This document shows positions 2,467 to 12,174 of a stretch of DNA of 64,000 nucleotides, in pieces. The position numbers and the translations under genes were made by a program. This DNA comes from a bacterium. Lineage in GTDB: Bacteria; UBA8248. The stretch is from contig CBDBEV010000001.1 in assembly GCA_965204535.1 (NCBI GenBank), forward strand, positions 1,312,001 through 1,376,000. Reading direction: 5' to 3'. Under the pieces are notes generated by a model that was not told the origin of the DNA, ran no database searches, and saw only the letters and a program-made list of their open reading frames with translations. Every line of letters begins with the position of its first letter. Position 1 is the stretch's first letter.

Positions 2467-2500
2467 TGGAGTTTCGGCTCGCGACGCAGGAAGTATGAAC

Positions 2501-3529
2501 ATGGCGGAAACCATGCGGGCGGCGGTGTATTACCGAAACGACGACGTGCGGATCGAGGAGATGGCGAAGCCCCGCGCCGGGGCGGGCGAGCTTTTGGTCG
2601 AGACGCGCGCGAGCGGCATCTGCGGCAGCGACGTAATGGAATGGTACCGGGTGAAGAGCGCGCCGCGCGTCTTGGGCCACGAGGTGACGGGCGTCGTCGC
2701 GCAAGCGGGCGAGGGTGTGGCGGGTTTTCGCGCAGGCGATCGCGTCTGCGTCACCCATCACGTGCCCTGTAATGCCTGCGCGCATTGCCTGCGCGGCGAC
2801 CACACGGCTTGTGAGATGCTGAAAGCTACGAATTTCGACCCGGGCGGTTTCGCCGAGTTCATCCGCTTGCCCGCCGTCAACGTGGATCGGGGGACGTTCC
2901 GCCTGCCCGATGAGGTTTCGGACGATGCGGGCGTGTTCGTCGAGCCGCTGGGCTGCGTCCTGCGCGGCTGGCGGCGCTTCCGGATGACGCCGGGCCTCTC
3001 CGTCCTCGTGGTGGGAAGCGGGATGTCGGGCCTGTTGCATGTGCAGGCGGCGCGCATCCTGGGAGCGGGAGCCATATTCGCGGCGGACGTCCATCCCTGG
3101 CGTCTCGAAGCCGCCGAGCGGTTCGGCGCGCATGCGCTGCCCCCGTGCGAAGATATGGCGGAGGCCTTACGGGAGGCGAACGAGGGCCGCCTGGCGGATC
3201 GCGTCATCCTGTGCGCTGGCGTGCCCGAGGCTCTTAAGACGGCCCTCGCGTGCGTCGCGACCTGCGGCGTCTTGCAGCTTTTCGCCCCCACACCGCCGGG
3301 ATACCGTCCTGAAATCGACCTCAACCGAATCTGGAGCGAGCAGATCGCCATCACCACCACCTATGGCGCGGCGCCGCTCGATCTCGAAGAAGCGCTCGCG
3401 CTCATACGCGCCGGCCGCATCGAGGTCGGGGAGATGGTCACCCACAGGCTCCCGCTCGCGCAGGCGCAGGAGGGCTTCCGCCTCGTCGCCGAGGCGGGCG
3501 AATCACTGAAAGTTGTGCTCAAACCCTGA
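2501..3529 (+). CDS. Zn-dependent dehydrogenase (MDR family, L-iditol/threonine dehydrogenase-like)
   Basis: GICGSD, GHE, structural-Zn CNACAHCLRGDHTAC, GSGMSG nucleotide-binding loop, C-terminal ESLKVVLKP. Confidence 0.9.
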   Translation: MAETMRAAVYYRNDDVRIEEMAKPRAGAGELLVETRASGICGSDVMEWYRVKSAPRVLGHEVTGVVAQAGEGVAGFRAGDRVCVTHHVPCNACAHCLRGDHTACEMLKATNFDPGGFAEFIRLPAVNVDRGTFRLPDEVSDDAGVFVEPLGCVLRGWRRFRMTPGLSVLVVGSGMSGLLHVQAARILGAGAIFAADVHPWRLEAAERFGAHALPPCEDMAEALREANEGRLADRVILCAGVPEALKTALACVATCGVLQLFAPTPPGYRPEIDLNRIWSEQIAITTTYGAAPLDLEEALALIRAGRIEVGEMVTHRLPLAQAQEGFRLVAEAGESLKVVLKP

Positions 3530-3544
3530 TCGCAAGCCCGAATC

Positions 3545-3573
3545 TTGCGGGGGAGCGCGAAAGAGATTAGTAT
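3545..3573 (+). promoter_or_regulatory. sigma70-like promoter of unit 1
   Basis: TTGCGG-N17-TAGTAT. Confidence 0.7.
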
Positions 3574-3664
3574 TTTTCCGAGAAAGCGAGCAACGCAGGG
3601 CAGGGCGCTCTGGGTCCACGAGGTTGTTCGGTTTTTTGTTGGTGGACTCGCAAGGAGGAAGGAA

Positions 3665-3871
3665 GTGACGACTTTTCAAATCGCGACGCTGGTTGCATTG
3701 GGCATTCAGAGCGCAATAGCTCTTGGTGTGGGAAGCGTTCAGTGTATCCTGATATGGAAGGGCTTGCGACAGATGGAGCGCGCCTCGGAGTTCAGGGAAA
3801 GAGAGAGCGCAAGACGGCACGAGGAATCCATGACCGCGCTCAAGGCGCTCATCGAGCGGACGGCGAAGTAA
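3665..3871 (+). CDS. Small membrane-anchored coiled-coil protein, copy 1 (68 aa)
   Basis: GTG start after AAGGAGG; hydrophobic N-terminus then charged helix; four paralogues downstream. Confidence 0.85.
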   Translation: MTTFQIATLVALGIQSAIALGVGSVQCILIWKGLRQMERASEFRERESARRHEESMTALKALIERTAK

Positions 3872-3895
3872 CTTCTACTTCCCGCCGGCCAACCC

Positions 3896-3925
3896 GCCCC
3901 CGTCTTTCGGGAAGGGGGCTTTTCT
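3896..3925 (+). terminator. Intrinsic terminator of unit 1
   Basis: GCCCCCGTCT-TTCG-GGAAGGGGGC then TTTTCT. Confidence 0.7.
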
Positions 3926-4011
3926 GTTGCTCGATTGTTCTCTGCCCATCATCTGTTTTGGGAATCTCTCCAGGTGGCGTTTAGACCTTGGGTCGCGCGA
4001 AGAACCGGATA

Positions 4012-4040
4012 TTGCGGGGGAGTGCGAAAGGGGATAGTGT
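4012..4040 (+). promoter_or_regulatory. sigma70-like promoter of unit 2
   Basis: TTGCGG-N17-TAGTGT. Confidence 0.65.
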
Positions 4041-4120
4041 TATATCCAGGATTGCGGGCCATGGGACGCGAGGCTGTGGCGTTTCGCATTTGAGAGTCAA
4101 GGACCCGGGAGGAGAAGGAA

Positions 4121-4423
4121 GTGACGACTTTTCAAATCGCGACGCTGGTGGCATTGGGCATTCAGAGCGCAATAGCTCTTGGTGTAGGAAGCGTTCAGTG
4201 TATCCTGATATGGAAAGGCTTGCGACAGATGGAGCGCGCCTCGGAGTTCAGGGAAAGAGAGAGCGCTAGACGGCACGAGGAAGTCATGATGGAGGGTGCG
4301 AGGCGGCACGAGGAGGTTATGAAGAATCACGCCGAGAACATGAAAAATCATGAGGAAAACATGAAAAAACATGAGGAGTCGATGACCGCGCTCAAAACGC
4401 TCATCGAGCGGACAGGGAAGTAA
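4121..4423 (+). CDS. Small membrane-anchored coiled-coil protein, copy 2 (100 aa)
   Basis: Same N- and C-terminal blocks as copy 1 with a 32-aa (11+7+7+7) insertion of HEE-type repeats. Confidence 0.88.
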   Translation: MTTFQIATLVALGIQSAIALGVGSVQCILIWKGLRQMERASEFRERESARRHEEVMMEGARRHEEVMKNHAENMKNHEENMKKHEESMTALKTLIERTGK

Positions 4424-4448
4424 CCTCTACTTCCCGCCGGCCAACCCG

Positions 4449-4476
4449 CCCCCGTCCTCCGGGACGGGGGTTTTCT
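4449..4476 (+). terminator. Intrinsic terminator of unit 2
   Basis: CCCCCGTCC-TCCG-GGACGGGGG then TTTTCT. Confidence 0.8.
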
Positions 4477-4562
4477 GTTGATCGATGGTTCTCTGCCCAC
4501 CATCTGTTTTGGGAATCTCTCAAGGTGGCGGTTAGGCCTTGGGTCGCGCGAAGAACCGGATA

Positions 4563-4591
4563 TTGCGGTCGGTTGCGAAAGAGATTAGTAT
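4563..4591 (+). promoter_or_regulatory. sigma70-like promoter of unit 3
   Basis: TTGCGG-N17-TAGTAT. Confidence 0.7.
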
Positions 4592-4681
4592 TTTTCTGAG
4601 AAAGCGAGCAACGCAGGGCAGGACGCTCTGGGTCCACGAGGTTGTTCGATTTATTGATGGTGGACTCGTAAGGAGAAAGAA

Positions 4682-4942
4682 GTGACGACTTTTCAAATCG
4701 CGACGCTGGTGGCATTGGGCATCCAGAGCGCAATAGCTCTTGGTGTAGGAAGTGTTCAGTGTATCCTGATATGGAAGGGCTTGAGGCAGATGGAGCGCGC
4801 CTCGGAGTTCAGGGAAAGAGAGAGCGCAAGACGGCACGAGGAAGTCATGAGGGAGGGCGCGAGACGGCACGAAGAGAACATGAAAAAACATGAGCAGTCC
4901 ATGACCGCGCTCAAGACGCTCATCGAGCGGACAGGGAAGTAA
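4682..4942 (+). CDS. Small membrane-anchored coiled-coil protein, copy 3 (86 aa)
   Basis: Paralogue with an 18-aa (11+7) insertion. Confidence 0.88.
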   Translation: MTTFQIATLVALGIQSAIALGVGSVQCILIWKGLRQMERASEFRERESARRHEEVMREGARRHEENMKKHEQSMTALKTLIERTGK

Positions 4943-4967
4943 CCTCTACTTCCCGCCGGCTACTCCG

Positions 4968-4998
4968 CCCCCGTCCTCCGGGACGGGGGTTTTCTTTT
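4968..4998 (+). terminator. Intrinsic terminator of unit 3
   Basis: CCCCCGTCC-TCCG-GGACGGGGG then TTTTCTTTT. Confidence 0.8.
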
Positions 4999-5081
4999 GT
5001 TCGATGGTTCTCTGCCCACCATCTGTTTTGGGAATCTCTCAAGGTGGCGGTTAGGCCTTGGGTCGCGAGAAGCACCGAATC

Positions 5082-5110
5082 TTGCGGTCGAGCGCGAAAG
5101 AGATTAGTAT
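5082..5110 (+). promoter_or_regulatory. sigma70-like promoter of unit 4
   Basis: TTGCGG-N17-TAGTAT. Confidence 0.7.
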
Positions 5111-5200
5111 TTTTCCGAGAAAGCGAGCAACGCAGGGCAGGGCGCTCTGGGTCCACGAGGTTGTTCGGTTTTTGTTGGTGGACTCGCAAGGAGGAAGGAA

Positions 5201-5428
5201 GTGACGACTTTTCAAATCGCGACGCTGGTGGCATTGGGCATTCAGAGCGCAATAGCTCTTGGTGTGGGAAGCGTTCAGTGTATCCTGATATGGAAGGGCT
5301 TGCGACAGATGGAGCGCGCCTCGGAGTTCAGGGAAAGAGAAAGTGCGAGACGGCATGAGGAAAACATGAAAAAACATGAGGAATCGATGACCGCACTCAA
5401 GACGCTCATCGAGCGGACAGGGAAGTAA
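5201..5428 (+). CDS. Small membrane-anchored coiled-coil protein, copy 4 (75 aa)
   Basis: Paralogue with a 7-aa insertion (NMKKHEE). Confidence 0.88.
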   Translation: MTTFQIATLVALGIQSAIALGVGSVQCILIWKGLRQMERASEFRERESARRHEENMKKHEESMTALKTLIERTGK

Positions 5429-5453
5429 CCTCTACTTCCCGCCGGCTACTCCG

Positions 5454-5481
5454 CCCCCGTCCTCCGGGCCGGGGGTTTTCT
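5454..5481 (+). terminator. Intrinsic terminator of unit 4
   Basis: CCCCCGTCC-TCCG-GGCCGGGGG then TTTTCT. Confidence 0.75.
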
Positions 5482-5567
5482 GTTGCTCGATTGTTCTCTG
5501 CCCACCATCTGTTTTGGGAATCTTTCAAGGTGACTTTTAGGCCTTGAGTCGCGCGCAGAGCCGGATA

Positions 5568-5596
5568 TTGCGGGAGTACGCGAAAGGGGATAGTGT
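5568..5596 (+). promoter_or_regulatory. sigma70-like promoter of unit 5
   Basis: TTGCGG-N17-TAGTGT. Confidence 0.65.
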
Positions 5597-5676
5597 TATA
5601 CTCAGGATTGCGGGCCATGGAACGCGAGGCCGTGGAGTTCGCAGGGTGAATACGAAAGACCCGAGAGGAAAAAGAG

Positions 5677-5871
5677 ATGACGACTTTCCAAATCGCAACG
5701 CTCGGGTTCTACGCCGTGCAGTCCCTCATCGGCCTCGCGCAGTGCGCCCTCATCCTGATGGGCTTGAGGCAGATGAGCCGCGCCTCGGAGTTCAGGGAAA
5801 GAGAGAGCGCTAGACGGCACGAGGAATCCATGACCGCGCTCAAGACGCTCATCGAGCGGACGGCGAAGTAA
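5677..5871 (+). CDS. Small membrane-anchored coiled-coil protein, copy 5 (64 aa, divergent TM segment)
   Basis: MTTFQIATL start and RASEFRERESARRHEESMTALKTLIERTAK tail are shared; the hydrophobic segment differs. Confidence 0.85.
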   Translation: MTTFQIATLGFYAVQSLIGLAQCALILMGLRQMSRASEFRERESARRHEESMTALKTLIERTAK

Positions 5872-5896
5872 TCTCTACTTCCCGCCGGACAACCCG

Positions 5897-5927
5897 CCCC
5901 CGGCCTCCGGGATGGGGGTTTTTCTTT
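5897..5927 (+). terminator. Intrinsic terminator of unit 5 (its T tract is the IS target site)
   Basis: CCCCCGGCC-TCCG-GGATGGGGG then TTTTTCTTT. Confidence 0.7.
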
Positions 5928-5961
5928 GGGAATTATATACTAAGTTACCCAAGCGGCATGT

Positions 5962-6111
5962 TTAGGCGTGCTTTTTCTTGAGGTAGCGCCAGTTCTTTTT
6001 GGGCGGTCGCTGCATGATCGCGCGCGCTACATTCTCCGGTGTGTCATGTATCGGTTTAGGCATTGGGTTGGATGGTCGACCTACTGGTTTCTTGTTAGTT
6101 TCTTCTCTCAT
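5962..6111 (-). CDS. Small basic hypothetical protein at the IS end (49 aa)
   Basis: ATG after GAAGGGGG; GRPSNPMPKPIHDTPENVARAIMQRPPKKNWRYL; stops just inside the TIR. Confidence 0.55.
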   Translation of the reverse strand: MREETNKKPVGRPSNPMPKPIHDTPENVARAIMQRPPKKNWRYLKKKHA

Positions 6112-6358
6112 ATGAAGCCCCCTTCTAGGCATACTAGCGAACGCACACTCATCCTTCAAATTAAAATTTGACACAACTTACCCAACATTGCATTATCGTA
6201 TGAGCCAAACATCTGCATGTGGTCCTGAAAGTCGGGCCGCCTGCTGAATACAAAACCGCTCCCAGCGGAAATAAGCAGGGTCTCACCCAAAACGTGCAGA
6301 TGTTTGGCGACCGACCCGGCCTCGCGGTGAGGCCAGGAAACTCCAAGGAGAAGTCGTC

Positions 6359-7750
6359 ATGTTTACCAAACACATCGCAGTGGTTCTTTTCCTGTTGGTT
6401 TTCACGTTCGGTTGTGGTGGTGGGTCAATGCAGAGTGAACTGCCGGTTCAGAATTACTCAAGGCCAGCTTACCAAAACCCGAATTACCATCCCTATTTAA
6501 CGCCATCCAATGCTTACAGGTGGGAAAACACAATACATGTAGGTGGCGACGTTGAACCCCGCGATAAATTACGCCGGGTCGGAACTTTTGGCAGTATCAA
6601 GGTTTTCCAAGGAGCATCGCGTGATGGCGTCGGAAAGAAACGTCTGGAAAACTACGAACATGACCTGCTGACTCAAGACGATTCGACATCATCTTCGCGT
6701 GATGGATTCTATCCATTCAGAGTGGCTCCAAAGATTTGGCTTGAAGATGATTTTTACAGACTTCTCAGGGCAAATGATGAAAAAGCGGAAGGTCTTATAC
6801 AAGCATTGTTCGGAAGCGTTCGGATTCTCAACGATGCCCTTCCGCCTGAATTTCAAATCGACTTCACTACCGAAGATTCACCCCAAGTCGAGGGAACAAT
6901 CGCTATCGCATTTCGTTCCCCTGGTAGGATTGCGGAAATTTGCGGTAGTGCTGGGACTGTCGCATGCGCATCATCGGATGTTTTAAATTTGCACAACAAG
7001 ACGAATTCAGCCGTTATTTATTTTCCCGACAACCTGGACACATCAAAGAGGCAAACGACCCAAACGATAATACTCCATGAACTTTTGCATGCTCTTGGCA
7101 TTCAGGGACATGTGGACAGTATTGAATTTCCCGACTCGCTTATGGGCGCATACGGCGATTTTTTCCCGAACCCAGGGTTCGTATTGCACCGCATTGATCG
7201 AGAGATTTTACAAATTATGTACATGTCTCAACGGACGGATGACTACAATGATTGGGGTGAATGGAGTGATACGACCCTGCACATAACCGGAGAGTCTGTC
7301 GATGGGCACGTCAATTTCGGGGTGGCGCTGTTCAATGGTCTGCCACAACCTTGGGCGCGTGGCGTGGCACCTCGAAGTATGTTGAGCTTCGAGTCAAAAC
7401 CATCTTACTTGTTCGGGTCCGTTTCATGGAAAGGCTCTCTGTTAGGGTTCTCGGGGATATCTCCGGTTTACGGGGAAACCACACTCACTGTTGACATGGA
7501 CAACCTTGATGACGAACAAGACCTGAATTTCAGGAACCTGTTCTTCCTCAGTCGGTTCGAAGAAAGCGGAGCCGAAAGGTGGTTCCCTACTAGGAACATA
7601 GCCTACAAGGTGAAAATGTCACAACAAGGATTTTATCGTTCCGAAGATGACGGCCAAATTAGAGGCGTTTTCATCGGTCCAAGGCACGAGGGTATGGCAG
7701 GAACGCTCAAGCGCACAGACCTGGTCGGAGCATTCGGGGGGAAACGATAA
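6359..7750 (+). CDS. Lipoprotein, metzincin Zn-protease domain plus C-terminal TbpB-like beta-barrel
   Basis: Lipobox TFGC, HELLHALGIQGH (HExxHxxGxxH), Met-turn DSLMG, C-terminus GVFIGPRHEGMAGTLKRTDLVGAFGGKR; RBS AAGGAG. Confidence 0.8.
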   Translation: MFTKHIAVVLFLLVFTFGCGGGSMQSELPVQNYSRPAYQNPNYHPYLTPSNAYRWENTIHVGGDVEPRDKLRRVGTFGSIKVFQGASRDGVGKKRLENYEHDLLTQDDSTSSSRDGFYPFRVAPKIWLEDDFYRLLRANDEKAEGLIQALFGSVRILNDALPPEFQIDFTTEDSPQVEGTIAIAFRSPGRIAEICGSAGTVACASSDVLNLHNKTNSAVIYFPDNLDTSKRQTTQTIILHELLHALGIQGHVDSIEFPDSLMGAYGDFFPNPGFVLHRIDREILQIMYMSQRTDDYNDWGEWSDTTLHITGESVDGHVNFGVALFNGLPQPWARGVAPRSMLSFESKPSYLFGSVSWKGSLLGFSGISPVYGETTLTVDMDNLDDEQDLNFRNLFFLSRFEESGAERWFPTRNIAYKVKMSQQGFYRSEDDGQIRGVFIGPRHEGMAGTLKRTDLVGAFGGKR

Positions 7751-7751
7751 A

Positions 7752-8225
7752 ATGCTTAAACGAATTTTCGCAACTATAAGTATTTTTGTTCTGGGCATTT
7801 CAGGATGCGTTTCCGTTGAGGAATTGGCGCGGCAGGACTTGGGAACCATCGTCGAGCACAAGAGAATTTTCGTTGAATGCAAGGGAAAGCGATTTGCATT
7901 TAAGGAGTGGCTCGAAAAGGAAAAGAAGCATCTCCTGACAAAACATGAAATATCCACCAAATCAACCCAGACATACGCGAAATGCCTTGAAGAAAAGCTG
8001 GGTGTAATGTTCTGGGATCAGGTTCCTACGACCAGTCTTGATATTTTCTCCAAGACAACCTTGAGGTTCTACACCGGTGGAGACCATACCCTGGAAAGGT
8101 ATTTCGAGCGAGTCCGAAAGTGGCAACGAGTAATTCATGAAGGCGGCGAGCCGTGGAAGGGCTTCTGGCATGAACACAACGAAGTGATAGACAAGTGGCG
8201 AGCGATTTACAAGGACGCGAACTAG
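7752..8225 (+). CDS. Hypothetical lipoprotein (157 aa)
   Basis: Starts 1 bp after the protease stop; signal MLKRIFATISIFVLGISGC with lipobox. Confidence 0.7.
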   Translation: MLKRIFATISIFVLGISGCVSVEELARQDLGTIVEHKRIFVECKGKRFAFKEWLEKEKKHLLTKHEISTKSTQTYAKCLEEKLGVMFWDQVPTTSLDIFSKTTLRFYTGGDHTLERYFERVRKWQRVIHEGGEPWKGFWHEHNEVIDKWRAIYKDAN

Positions 8226-8235
8226 GAAGTTCATA

Positions 8236-8475
8236 TTAGACGGGAAGTGGAACGCCCCTTGAAAGCGCATCAGCTTCAATTCTTTTTATGCGGGTTTTCG
8301 TTTCTTTTATATCCACATCAAGGTTTTCTATTTCTACTATGGTTGGCCATCCACTTATGATGCGCTCTGGAAGAGGCACCTTGACCTCAAAACTATCGGT
8401 ATCATACTCCCATGAAAGAAATTCTATTGCTTCCTTTAGAATTTCGACTGTTGTTTCCTTCTTTTTTTCAAGCAT
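8236..8475 (-). CDS. Hypothetical protein, possibly frameshifted (true start may be GTG 8549)
   Basis: 79-aa ORF directly downstream of the transposase; adding one A to the A7 run (8462-8468) joins it to an upstream frame with an AGGA RBS. Confidence 0.4.
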   Translation of the reverse strand: MLEKKKETTVEILKEAIEFLSWEYDTDSFEVKVPLPERIISGWPTIVEIENLDVDIKETKTRIKRIEADALSRGVPLPV

Positions 8476-8560
8476 GCAAGGTGTTGTCTGACCTTTGCAT
8501 ATTCAATTATCGTTTGATCGGCTTGTTCTTCTTTTTCTTTCTCATTCACGCCATCAATCC

Positions 8561-9587
8561 TTAAAGTGGATACAGCCCCTTTCTCGGGAGCCTTTTCGTC
8601 AATTCTCGATACGTCAACCGCTTGTGGTCAAATCCTTGTGCCATTCTCTGCATTTGATCGGCAGTGTCAAGGGGCCGCTGGTTGTGGCGCCCCTCGAACT
8701 CGTTCACATAACGCTGTAGGTACTTGAACTCATCTTGTGGTAGGTGCCCATGTAACCGCGCTTGAGGAGCGCCCAGAACGATTCGACCCCGTTGGTGTGC
8801 GCTTGTTCCCTCACGTATTCTCCCGCGCTGTGTTTCACGGATTCATGTTCGAAATCGACCATACCCCGATAGGACGGATTATCGTCTATGTAGAGCGTCG
8901 CGCCCATGGCGGCGTTCTCTCGCACAAAGCCTTGCAAGGTGGGCTTGTCTGGTGAACCACCCCATTCCTCGCCAAGCTTCACTACTTCGGCGGAAATCCT
9001 GTTTGTTCCCGATCCTTCATCCCGATAACGGCGGTCTTGCCCACCGGTTCGCGTCCCGCTCGCAGCTTCTTGTTCGCGTGCTTGTTTCTCTCCTTGCCGC
9101 CGATGTAGGTCTCATCAACTTCTACTGGCCCTGTCATGGCATCGCCATCATCGAACAGAAACATACCTCCGTCCCATGTATCTTCTTCATCCTCCCACGC
9201 TTCCCTGATTCTGTGGCCTAGATGCCATGCGCTCTTTTGCGTGATGCCGAGGTCGCGGTGTAGCTTCATGCTGGAATGACCCTTGAAGTTGGTCGTCATG
9301 ATGTATATGGCAAATAACCACGTCTGGTAGCCAAGGGGGGAGGCGTGCATGAGAGTATCGGTTTTCACCGAGAAATCCTTGCGGCAATCACGGCAACGAT
9401 AGGGCTGAGGCTTGCGGGTCTTTCGTTCCTGCACATTCAGGCTCCTGCACTTCGGGCAACACACGCCATCCGGCCAGCGCGTCTTGATGAACCATTGCTC
9501 CGCCGCGTCATCATTGGGAAACATGCGGGTCAATTCGATGAGGGAAATGCCTTTGCGGTAATGTTTACCTGGGGCTTTCTGTGTCAT
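8561..9587 (-). pseudogene. IS1595-family transposase with two frameshifts
   Basis: Zn ribbon CPKC..CRDC, VEVDETYIGG, LYIDD, HTNGVESFWALLKRG, and in a third frame YLQRYVNEFEGRHN; single-base losses near 9006 and 8727. Confidence 0.9.
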
Positions 9588-9693
9588 GTAATTACCTCCT
9601 TTATTTTGGAAGCAATTTACCCTAACGGTATGAATTTGTCAAGTGGGTAACTTAGTATATAATTCCCTTTTCTTTTACACCGCTGATTGTCCG

Positions 9694-12174
9694 CTATTCA
9701 TCTACGGGGTGGTAGTTCAGTTCGCTCCCGGGCGGGGAATCGCCCTCGGTCGCTTCGTCCTCATAAAGAGCATCCGGCGGGGCGTCTTCCGTGAACTGCG
9801 TGTCATCCGCGTCCGCATCCTGCGGGGCGGGGGCGGGCTCCTTGAGAAGCGGGGCGAGTTTCGCCTCGCGGCGGATTCTTTCCGGCAGGCCGCTCCAGCG
9901 CCTCCTCACGCGCGCGTTTCCTATCGCCATGCCGAGCGCCTTTTTCGCCCCGACGAACACCGCCAGACGCTTCGCCCGCGTGAGGGCGGTGTAGACGAGG
10001 TTTCTCTGCAGCATCGGGAAGTGCTGGGTGTGGAGCGGGATGACGACGGCGGGGTATTCGCTCCCCTGGCTCTTGTGGACGGTGATGGCGTAGGCGTGCA
10101 TCACCTCATCGAGCGCGCCGCGCGTGTATTCGACGACGTTCGAATCGAAAGCGGCGCGAATGCTTCCCTCCTCCGGGGACACGCTCTTGACGACGCCGAT
10201 GTCGCCGTTGAACACGTCCTTGTCGTAGTTGTTGCGCACCTGGATGAGCTTGTCCCCGGTGCGGAACGTCCGGCCTCCGCTCTGGAGCGCGGGCGCGCTT
10301 CCGGCGGGGTTGAGCGCTTCCTGCAGGCGCGCGTTCAGGCTCTGCACGCCGAGCACGCCGCGCTGCATGGGGGAGATGACCTGGAGGTCGGCGATGGCGT
10401 CGATCTGGAACCGATCGGGAATGCGCTCGCGGCACAGTTCGATGATGAGGTCGGCGCAGCGCTCCGCCTCGCTCTCCTCGATGAAGTAATAGTCGAGCGG
10501 GGCGTCTTCTTTTTCCCCCTTGCCGTTTCGGGGCATCTCGCCGCGGTTCACGCGGTGGGCGTTCTCGACGATCAGGCTCTCCTGCGCCTGTCGGAAGACC
10601 TCCGTGAGCCGCGCCACGGGCAGGGTTTCCGACGTGATGACGTCGCTTAAGACGTTGCCGGGCCCCACGGAGGGGAGCTGGTCCACGTCGCCCACCAGGA
10701 CAAGCGTCGCCGGGTCGGGTACCGCGCGCAGCAGGTGGGCCGTCAGGTGTACGTCGAGCATCGAGGCCTCATCAATAATTACGATGTCGCCGGTGAGCGG
10801 GTTTTCCGCATCGCGGGTGAAGCCGCCCGAGTGCCAGCTGTATTCGAGCAGTCTGTGGATGGTGGCCGCCTCGTGGCCTGTGACTTCAGAAAGACGCTTG
10901 GCCGCCCGGCCCGTAGGGGCGCCGAGGATGACCTGGAGGCCGAGTTTCGTGTAGAGGTTCGTGACGGCGCTCACGATGGTCGTCTTGCCGGTGCCGGGGC
11001 CGCCCGTGACGATGAGCACTTTCTGCGTGAGCGCGCCCTCTATCGCCGCCCCCTGATCCTTCGTCGCCTTGCCGCCCTCGAGCGCGCGCCGGGCGAGATG
11101 GCCGAGACGCTCTTTCGTCGTGCTCCCGGGCGCTCCCTGTCCCCGCATGGCGGCTTCGAGACGCGCCTCGTCGCGCGGCGTGCGGATGAGCGCGGCGAGA
11201 CGGCGGGCGACCTCGCATTCCGCGGCGTAGAGCGGACGCGCGTAGACGCGCTTGCCCTCGGCCGAAGCGAGGTTCTCGACCATGTTCGCCGATTCGATCA
11301 CCACCGAGCCGCCCTGGCCCAGGTTCTCGAGAACGGGAGCGAGGGCGTCGGCTTCGGTCTCGAGCATCTCGGCGGCCGTCTCCATCAGGTCGCCGTAGGG
11401 CAGAAAGCAGTGGCCCTCGCGCTCGGCGAGCTGGTTTAGGACGTAGACGGCTCCCGCCGCCAGGCGTTTGGGAGAGTCAACGGGAATTCCCAGCTTCTGC
11501 GCGATGCGGTCCGCGCTCTTGAAGCCCACGCCGTGAATCTCTGACGCCAGGCGATAGGGGTCTTCGCGCAGAATCCGTATGGACGCCTCGCCGTAGGTTC
11601 TCAGGATTTTCTCGGATAGATGGAGCGGGACGTCGTATTGACGGAGAAAAAGCATGATCTCCTTGACCTCGCTCTGGCTCTTCCAGCTCTCGACGATGGC
11701 TTCGAGCTTCTTCGCGCCCAGACCGGCGACTTCCGTGAGGCGCTCGGGGTGGTTGTCGAGGATTTCGAGGGATTTCTCCCCGAAGCGCGTAACGATTCTC
11801 CTGGCGAGAGCGGGGCCGATGTTCTTCACGATGCCGGACGCCAGGTACTTTTCGATTCCCTCGATTGTCGTGGGTGTCAGCGGGCGGGCGAGCTCGGCGT
11901 GGAACTGGCGGCCGAACCTGGGGTGATCCTTCCAGCCGCCCTCGAAGCGCGCGCGCTCGCCCTCGCGGATGGAGGAGAGATAGCCCACAACGGCCACGCG
12001 GGGGAAATCCTCGTTGTCCGGCTGGACGAGCAGGACGCTGTAGCCGGTGTCCTCCGCGCGGAAGCGGATGCGCTCGACCGCGCCGGTCAGTTCGGTCCCG
12101 TCTTGCGGGAAGAGGCCCGCCTGGGGAGGAGGGGTCCTTCTTCCGGGGCGTGGTGTTCTCGGTTTGCGCGTCAT
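9694..12174 (-). CDS. recD2: ATP-dependent RecD2-like DNA helicase
   Basis: HhH region, TGGPGTGKTT, APTGRAAKRL, IIDEASM, VGDVDQLPSVGPG, AYAITVHKSQGSEY. Confidence 0.95.
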   Translation of the reverse strand: MTRKPRTPRPGRRTPPPQAGLFPQDGTELTGAVERIRFRAEDTGYSVLLVQPDNEDFPRVAVVGYLSSIREGERARFEGGWKDHPRFGRQFHAELARPLTPTTIEGIEKYLASGIVKNIGPALARRIVTRFGEKSLEILDNHPERLTEVAGLGAKKLEAIVESWKSQSEVKEIMLFLRQYDVPLHLSEKILRTYGEASIRILREDPYRLASEIHGVGFKSADRIAQKLGIPVDSPKRLAAGAVYVLNQLAEREGHCFLPYGDLMETAAEMLETEADALAPVLENLGQGGSVVIESANMVENLASAEGKRVYARPLYAAECEVARRLAALIRTPRDEARLEAAMRGQGAPGSTTKERLGHLARRALEGGKATKDQGAAIEGALTQKVLIVTGGPGTGKTTIVSAVTNLYTKLGLQVILGAPTGRAAKRLSEVTGHEAATIHRLLEYSWHSGGFTRDAENPLTGDIVIIDEASMLDVHLTAHLLRAVPDPATLVLVGDVDQLPSVGPGNVLSDVITSETLPVARLTEVFRQAQESLIVENAHRVNRGEMPRNGKGEKEDAPLDYYFIEESEAERCADLIIELCRERIPDRFQIDAIADLQVISPMQRGVLGVQSLNARLQEALNPAGSAPALQSGGRTFRTGDKLIQVRNNYDKDVFNGDIGVVKSVSPEEGSIRAAFDSNVVEYTRGALDEVMHAYAITVHKSQGSEYPAVVIPLHTQHFPMLQRNLVYTALTRAKRLAVFVGAKKALGMAIGNARVRRRWSGLPERIRREAKLAPLLKEPAPAPQDADADDTQFTEDAPPDALYEDEATEGDSPPGSELNYHPVDE

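Follow-up and report, generated by a model that had tools for sequence, protein, structure and literature searches.

The window analyzed here is a 64,000-nt stretch of a bacterial genome (GCA_965204535.1, contig CBDBEV010000001.1:1,312,001-1,376,000, forward strand), and coordinates given without a contig or locus prefix are positions within it. Between a gene for a Zn-dependent dehydrogenase and recD2 it carries five tandem units, all on the + strand, each with its own promoter-like site, leader, small open reading frame (ORF) and terminator-like hairpin, which belong to the family of small membrane-anchored proteins described below. The promoter-like site, of the sigma70 type, reads TTGCGG-N17-TAGTAT in units 1 (3545-3573), 3 (4563-4591) and 4 (5082-5110), and TTGCGG-N17-TAGTGT in units 2 (4012-4040) and 5 (5568-5596), with the -35 element at the first position of each range and promoter-to-promoter distances of 467, 551, 519 and 486 nt. 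Leaders of 80-91 nt separate the -10 box from a strong, purine-rich ribosome-binding site (RBS) and the start codon, GTG in ORFs 1 to 4 and ATG in ORF 5. All five ORFs are intact and code for proteins of 68 (3665-3871), 100 (4121-4423), 86 (4682-4942), 75 (5201-5428) and 64 amino acids (5677-5871) that share the C-terminal end SMTALK[AT]LIERT[AG]K. A GC-rich terminator-like hairpin with a T run follows each ORF, at 3896-3926 in unit 1, where it was read directly and folded, and at 4448-4481, 4967-5000, 5453-5485 and 5896-5927 in units 2 to 5, where it was returned by a terminator scan (11 sites, against 4.5+-1.9 in shuffled sequences); the T tract of the last hairpin (5920-5927) is the target duplicated by an adjoining insertion sequence (IS) of the IS1595 family. 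The array promoters were not listed by a generic promoter scan because their scores fall below its cut-off. An earlier note, made from the sequence alone, had described this layout of promoters, RBS, intact ORFs of 64-100 amino acids with a common SMTALK-type end and terminators, all of which we found in place; its leader length of about 80 nt had to be refined, and the existence of two leader types had escaped it.

Units 1, 3 and 4 carry the first leader type (type A), in which, as in the predicted leader of unit 1 (3580-3664, from a putative transcription start), an inverted repeat, GGGTCCAC...GTGGACTC, lies immediately before the RBS. Units 2 (4047-4120) and 5 (5603-5676) carry type B, a predicted hairpin with a conserved GCGAGG loop, followed by GACCC and the RBS. 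Unit 2 is a mosaic, in that the leader type of unit 5 is joined to the ORF type of units 1, 3 and 4, and because it pairs the second leader type with the first ORF type, the units evidently recombine. The ORFs differ in length by 7- and 11-residue insertions just ahead of the common C-terminal end: relative to ORF 1, which has the shortest class of tail, ORF 2 has gained one 11-residue and three 7-residue insertions, ORF 3 an 11+7 insertion and ORF 4 a single 7-residue insertion. ORF 5 has a transmembrane (TM) N-terminal segment of a second type, different from that of ORFs 1-4. Pairwise, these copies show differences at 4-15 synonymous sites out of about 34.

The slot between the dehydrogenase gene (2495-3529, + strand; outside the units) and recD2 (9694-12174, - strand; adjoining the array in 11 relatives) was compared in 11 congeners, as the earlier note had proposed, and it holds 1, 2, 2, 2, 2, 2, 3, 3, 4, 4 and 4 copies. 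Together, 34 orthologous units from 12 genomes could be examined: the ORFs are intact in all 34, 33 have a promoter-like site 107-120 nt ahead of the start, the tail measures 36+7a+11b residues in 33, and the pooled between-genome ratio of nonsynonymous to synonymous substitution (dN/dS) over a 50-codon core is 0.135. Judged from this divergence, the array is under purifying selection, and its units carry independent expression signals, selection on which the earlier note had argued for. In a tree of the units, of which 12 of the 31 inner branches are well supported, positions and genomes are intermixed, as expected from unequal crossing-over and gene conversion. A misassembly of strain variants is ruled out by the 11 congeners with the array in the same slot and by the depth of coverage in run X1 (possibly the source sample), in which six unit-specific contig pieces, none spanning the array, have depths of 23.3-23.8 against 23.2 for the right flank. 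In run X3 the unit pieces are found at depths of 18-54 against 84-154 for the flanks, a deficit that suggests strains with differing arrays. The family repertoire appears to differ between strains, to judge from the depths in X3 and from one truncated and one absent ortholog elsewhere (see below). In one relative (G004, L045:5430-6308), about 880 bp lie between two array copies, twice the usual spacing.

The array is only part of a larger family. An iterated profile search identified 29 family genes in the 4.56-Mb source genome, 24 of them outside the array, coding for proteins of 64-216 amino acids, and a broader profile recovered the same 29. The profile has matches in 18 of 18 congeners (2-37 each, counted as matches and not as genes) and in two of 12 more distant genomes. 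A search of 1.84 billion representatives gave 117 matches at an E value of 0.001 or better, of which one was evidently false and was dropped; a pattern scan of 185,579 species genomes gave 137 stretches, 114 of them confirmed, and one of 241 million metagenome records gave 173, only 16 of them confirmed. The 74 loci listed from the scan of species genomes all come from metagenome-assembled genomes, assigned to Nitrospinota or simply to 'bacterium' (30), Binatia (24), Alphaproteobacteria (14), Thermodesulfobacteriota (3), Acidobacteriota (2) and Deltaproteobacteria (1); one homolog is annotated as a hypothetical protein of a Nitrospinae bacterium. The distribution is patchy and the genes are mostly multi-copy: the family occurs in 22 of 151 genomes of the class Binatia and in 9 of 78 of one alphaproteobacterial order. 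Tandem arrays exist in other phyla too, with seven copies straight after rpoC and a second array of five separately promoted copies in G196, and four copies in G078. Of the 23 sequencing runs that contain the window stretch, 11 are labelled sponge metagenome, one coral and two metagenome, the other nine being coded, and pieces of the array are present in the one sponge run examined; no RNA run is among those listed, which does not bear on expression. The other family-bearing lineages are presumably also associated with sponges. The family is present, with as many as about 30 copies in a genome, in several bacterial groups that are unrelated and likely to be sponge-dwelling. The undescribed, expandable small-protein system that the earlier note had supposed is borne out, with 1-5 copies at the slot, 29 genes in the source genome and a distribution over at least four phylum-level groups.

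Some of these loci have features of their own. The seven copies in G196 (L174:4216-8921) are set mostly in short, GC-rich spacers, most of which lack a promoter-like site, and ahead of them lies a fragment similar to a CCDC90-like N-terminus. In G113 (L178 and L179), small genes make up a 20-kb island, in which five family copies stand among CCDC90-like genes, other genes for TM-coiled-coil proteins and IS1595 and IS1 elements. In G193 (L176 and L177) family copies, several of them broken, are interspersed with repeated ORFs of 56-57 amino acids which, with a conserved leader and a variable tail, resemble peptide precursors, possibly lasso-like ones; the one scanned has no Pfam match. Broken copies are also found in G011.

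The organization of the gene recurs in part across the family. A strict promoter score is reached upstream of 20 of the 29 paralogs in the source genome; 93 of 982 control genes reach it, and shuffling gives a mean of 0.9. The five array promoters score just below the cut-off; elsewhere the signal is uneven, being reached in 8 of 12 alphaproteobacterial and 2 of 23 Binatia upstream regions, the start calls of the latter being less reliable. In many homologs the leader is about 40 nt long or shorter. A leader motif, Y-R-Y-GAG...G-R-C-Y-C, is found in 17 of the 29 paralogs and in 25 of 61 loci of the Nitrospinota group, but in none of 41 loci from other phyla and in 20 of 1241 controls; CGAG stands at its place in 9 of 121 controls, so that the motif is not a general promoter element, while GAGGACCC is also an ordinary RBS in the source genome. 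In the type-B leader (4047-4120, 5603-5676) the GCGAGG loop is invariant in 21 units and more conserved than the stem, of whose 13 pairs none is compensatory; from this sequence pattern, the loop is possibly a site for the binding of a protein or an RNA. Control of the GAGG-rich leaders by CsrA was rejected, no csrA being found in the source genome (95.7% complete).

The neighbors of family genes are unrelated metabolic genes, without a fixed partner, and two copies lie between hsdM and hsdS-like genes. When four sites of the source genome were compared with five relatives, both filled and empty versions, between unrelated genes, were found for two; one ortholog is truncated and one is absent. 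No terminal repeats or target duplications are seen at the two filled/empty sites, and mobility by a transposon was rejected; only one of 23 sites in the source genome lies within 10 kb of an IS1595 or IS1 match, a chance level. An integron-cassette reading was likewise discarded, as GTTAGGC occurs in two spacers only and the inverse core site is absent. Four other stand-alone genes for small TM and coiled-coil proteins in the source genome (C2:1443821, +; C2:1035476, -; C1:65144, -; C1:287791, +) are not homologous by profile; the first two have the GAGGACCC leader motif after a promoter-like site of their own, suggesting a wider class.

AlphaFold2 modelled the protein as one helix from residue 3 to 67 (predicted local distance difference test, 91; predicted template modelling score, 0.47). 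Of 135 anchored sequences, 129 have more Lys and Arg residues after the TM segment than before it, 6 have equal numbers and none has fewer; by the positive-inside rule, the long tail is predicted to be cytoplasmic (N-out/C-in). The family protein is thus predicted, on the model, to be a single continuous helix with an N-out TM segment that bears a Gly/Gln stripe. Relative to the Gly residue that ends the TM segment, the conserved positions are G(-10), Q(-7), L or I (-4 and -3), M(+4), small residues at +7/+8 and R(+11; 120 of 135 sequences), and the column profile of the family reads G-x-x-Q-C-x-L-I-x-x-G-L-x-x-M. The Arg residue is followed by H-x-E-x-M repeats and then by a tip, A-L-x-x-L-I-x-R-T (112 of 144 sequences). 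Conservation is 83% for G, 85% for Q and 96% for M among 115 rows chosen beforehand for having both the anchor Gly and the Arg, and 79% for H, 84% for M, 94% for I and 97% for T in 107 tips. The conserved residues share one face of the helix, the small or polar ones running through the membrane and recurring at -21, -18, -14, -10, -7, 0 and +7/+8. The motif H-x-[EA]-x-M is present in 132 of 144 sequences, as a single motif in 60 and in up to 8 repeats, the spacing of which is mostly 7 (29 cases), 11 (52) or 18 (48), with a mean period near 3.6. Moreover, in all 77 sequences with a Gly-to-tip distance of up to 58 residues that distance is 22, 26, 29, 33, 36-37, 40, 44, 47, 51, 54-55 or 58, that is, whole helical turns. 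The N-terminal side is lengthened by uncharged heptads in many members. We infer from these regularities that the family protein would form a straight, parallel, self-assembling bundle, variable in length but fixed in phase.

No characterized family accounts for these proteins: a clear match to one, which the earlier note had said would overturn its view, was not found in Pfam, PHROGs, NCBIfam or the PDB. Searches of Pfam, PHROGs and NCBIfam with 77 members gave only scattered weak matches of the kind typical of TM and coiled-coil proteins (for PHROGs, in at most 3 of the 77); the best E value against the PDB by sequence was 0.42, Foldseek found no match in PDB or BFVD (a single helix being uninformative), the ESM Atlas had none at 0.9 or above, and Rfam gave two chance-level matches only. 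Profiles of ATP synthase subunit b and TatA are not among the 25 of 65 Pfam families listed for the 77 members. None of 21 longer matches is a fusion to another domain, the 17 inspected being all repeat-expanded, mis-started or read-through. Among the nearest in kind are the expanded membrane-anchored coiled-coil families CCDC90-like (PF07798), Borrelia Bdr and Mycoplasma DUF16, which share the lineage-specific expansion, small size, variable repeat number and polar core residues, and CCDC90-like genes adjoin family copies in G113. However, the anchor is N-terminal here and C-terminal in CCDC90 and Bdr, PF07798 is not among the listed profile matches, no Pfam family matches, and the 7/11/18 spacing leads to a near-straight helix. 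The literature searched holds no prior description of the family, although subscription journals and the supplements of sponge metagenome studies, outside its scope, may list an unnamed cluster; sponge-derived Nitrospinota genomes are mentioned in PMC10839748. The architecture itself is known in kind, being that of a small protein with a single pass and a helical tail that can expand. What appears to be undescribed is the family, together with its expansion across phyla, which is probably niche-bound, and its phase-locked series of lengths.

As to function, we tentatively favor, by analogy, a constitutive, non-lethal, self-bundling rod of the inner membrane that hinders the entry of foreign DNA, such as phage genomes. 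The earlier note had named phage or superinfection exclusion and an envelope factor among the possible roles. We prefer this envelope-guard role because small exclusion proteins of the inner membrane are known, because the design of the genes is moron-like and because the repertoire varies between strains. HK97 gp15, encoded by a moron, and SieA are small inner-membrane proteins that stop the injection of DNA (PMC10883804). Like morons, the family genes have promoter- and terminator-like signals of their own and are sited between unrelated genes. A moron is a self-contained cassette between unrelated genes; the family differs from morons in being chromosomal, multi-copy, absent from the phages searched and without sequence match. 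In the scheme that we propose, each unit would be expressed constitutively as a monocistronic message, as its sequence signals suggest, and the product would probably insert N-out into the inner membrane and assemble with itself along the conserved face (Gly, Gln, Gly, Met, Arg, His, Met, Leu, Ile, Thr). The array would probably grow and shrink by unequal crossing-over and gene conversion, thereby tuning dose and rod length, and the gene may have spread between lineages that share the sponge habitat. As a guess, prompted by moron-encoded superinfection exclusion, the rods would jam or decoy the helical conduit for DNA ejection at its passage through the inner membrane. The seven copies behind rpoC in G196 suggest that strong expression is tolerated.

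Several observations weigh against a role in excluding DNA. No family member was found in viral contigs, in 50,697 phage records or in 72,556 plasmid records, and, to our knowledge, known exclusion genes are phage-borne. The tip, which is the best-conserved part, is predicted to be cytoplasmic and hardly varies from phylum to phylum, a pattern less in keeping with an arms race than with self-assembly or with a host partner that is itself conserved. No enrichment near defence genes is seen in the source genome: none of 23 sites lies within 10 kb of a restriction-modification match, a weak test with only four such loci found with 10 queries. Only one of 50 members matches a PADLOC model (E 0.003). 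The genes belong to the core chromosome, with flanking GC content equal to that of the core (0.621 vs 0.621) and a third-position GC content (GC3) of 0.76. The expression on which the envelope-guard role depends is read from sequence signals.

A close but somewhat unlikely rival is that the parallel helices enclose a small, normally closed pore, with a lumen lined by polar residues (Ser/Ala, Gly, Gln, Gly) and capped by a ring of Arg and layers of His and Met, which would open on a pH or metal signal and relieve membrane or ion stress, the number of repeats tuning the threshold. The recurrence of small and polar residues along the TM face would suit such a lumen, and the layout (acidic N-terminus, one TM segment, charged helix) is that of the BhlA and TpeE holins and of TatA (PMC9527704). 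BhlA/UviB/TpeE (PF10960, TCDB 1.E.27) resemble the family in their size of about 65-70 amino acids, an acidic or neutral N-terminus, a single N-out TM segment (predicted here), a charged helix and a conserved Arg, and a BhlA-bearing cluster is the nearest Pfam-labelled ESM Atlas match for both queries, with weak scores of 0.84 and 0.80. The holin likeness raised in the earlier note, however, does not extend to homology: hhalign gave a local probability of 2.8% (19 family against 35 BhlA rows) and a global score of 3.0, within shuffled controls (maximum 5.9), and PF10960 is not among the 25 of 65 families listed for the 77 members, nor is there a PF10960 match in the source genome. The motifs of BhlA as given in PMC9527704 (TQG, an aromatic TM segment, K/R-x-N-x-E-R-E after it) are absent, Asn being at the matching place in 10%, whereas the family has expandable repeats, a conserved tip and Gram-negative hosts. 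Moreover, the model has no hinge, no cargo, endolysin or other partner gene lies nearby (no endolysin among 46 neighbor proteins of the other-phylum loci; the array is flanked by the dehydrogenase gene and recD2), and a leaky pore would come at a high cost with as many as 29 genes under strong promoters.

Another close rival, likewise somewhat unlikely, is that the protein is a tethered adaptor or regulator. Its conserved cytoplasmic tip, H-x-E-x-M-x-A-L-x-x-L-I-x-R-T, would then bind to a host protein or membrane complex that is itself conserved and keep it at a distance set by the length of the rod. The tip is kept across at least four phylum-level groups whatever the length, residues off the main face are conserved as well (E 79%, A 91%), and the native composition (GC3 as above), the core chromosomal location and the retention of the family by every congener searched count in its favor; but the family is lacking in close relatives, in 129 of 151 Binatia and in 69 of 78 genomes of the alphaproteobacterial order, single copies come and go, no partner gene is seen and, as weaker evidence, the longer matches include no domain fusion. 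Soft metals are ligated by His and Met, as in SilE and PcoE, and the H-x-[EA]-x-M repeats could, in stacked layers, make the protein a membrane-tethered sponge for Cu(I), Ag(I), Zn or Ni, with a capacity set by repeat number. This is unlikely, since the repeats of several paralogs lack His, being Gln-Gly-Glu or others, 60 of 144 sequences have a single motif and the neighborhood is not one of metal resistance.

The earlier note had also compared the array with the LDR and SIB loci, that is, with type I toxin-antitoxin arrays silenced by antisense RNA (ldr-rdl, ibs-sib). Type I loci are indeed searched for by the criterion of a small TM ORF repeated in tandem between genes, and the promoter, structured leader and terminator are shared with them (PMC2887945); the array leaders are long, conserved and foldable. 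The analogy nevertheless fails on most counts, and we regard it as very unlikely. No antisense promoter-like site is kept across the 34 units, the one recurrent site (13 of 34) arising where the codons for Ala-Leu-Lys are read in reverse, its spacers being 16 or 19; the RBS is open, with a computed mean unpaired probability of 0.48 (minimum 0.20) against 0.38 in 150 control genes; leaders in many homologs are short and Rfam has no meaningful match; the proteins, 64-100 amino acids in the array and up to 216 in paralogs, are mostly highly charged helix, where a type I toxin would be expected to have fewer than 60-70 residues and to be highly hydrophobic; and the family crosses phyla and includes operon-like settings, with copies behind rpoC and between hsdM and hsdS. 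Most improbable is a nearly neutral gene multiplying by duplication in drift-prone symbionts without benefit per copy, as scattered insertion, the lack of a partner, copy turnover and the broken copies in G193 and G011 might suggest, but the low dN/dS, the 34 intact ORFs, the in-phase indels and the absence of terminal repeats or target duplications at the two filled/empty sites argue otherwise.

A wider picture, also tentative, is of an undescribed, niche-wide protein system in sponge symbionts. In it, one gene would have been handed on among four or more phyla and then multiplied to dozens of copies, all with independent promoters. Each copy would specify a self-assembling trans-membrane helical bundle, its length on either side of the membrane adjusted by whole helical turns, that acts as a universal block to the entry of phage DNA or as a minimal, His-gated channel for life inside the sponge. 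Either a DNA-entry block or a gated pore would be a new minimal membrane machine. Reaching about 30 copies per genome, kept in every congener searched and recurring in unrelated lineages of one habitat, the family strongly suggests itself as a candidate trait of symbiosis or defence, one overlooked so far because sponge microbiomes are annotated by homology. With short proteins, a natural length series and one conserved face, it is directly testable in laboratory strains and as peptides, and its profile is also usable as a niche marker.

The IS1595-family element (5928-9667) lies between the array and recD2 and is not part of the array; it has 23-bp terminal inverted repeats and an 8-bp duplication of the T tract of unit 5. 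Its passenger ORFs, without Pfam match, code for a lipoprotein-like protein of 463 amino acids (6359-7750) and for proteins of 192 (7647-8225) and 79 (8236-8475), and its transposase is split (8982-9587 and 8704-8982); the joint of the empty site is present in run X1. Identical stretches occur on both contigs of the source genome (C1:187842, C2:350234 and C2:2960896; C1:212972 and C2:12259), in agreement with an estimate of 5.3% contamination or redundancy, and two family genes (C2:1070160 and C2:2695541) are identical including their flanks. A further family member, of another subgroup, lies about 2.2 kb ahead of the window start, 6 kb upstream of the array (C2:1309770), and G006 has a member at a similar place (L046:9368-9613).

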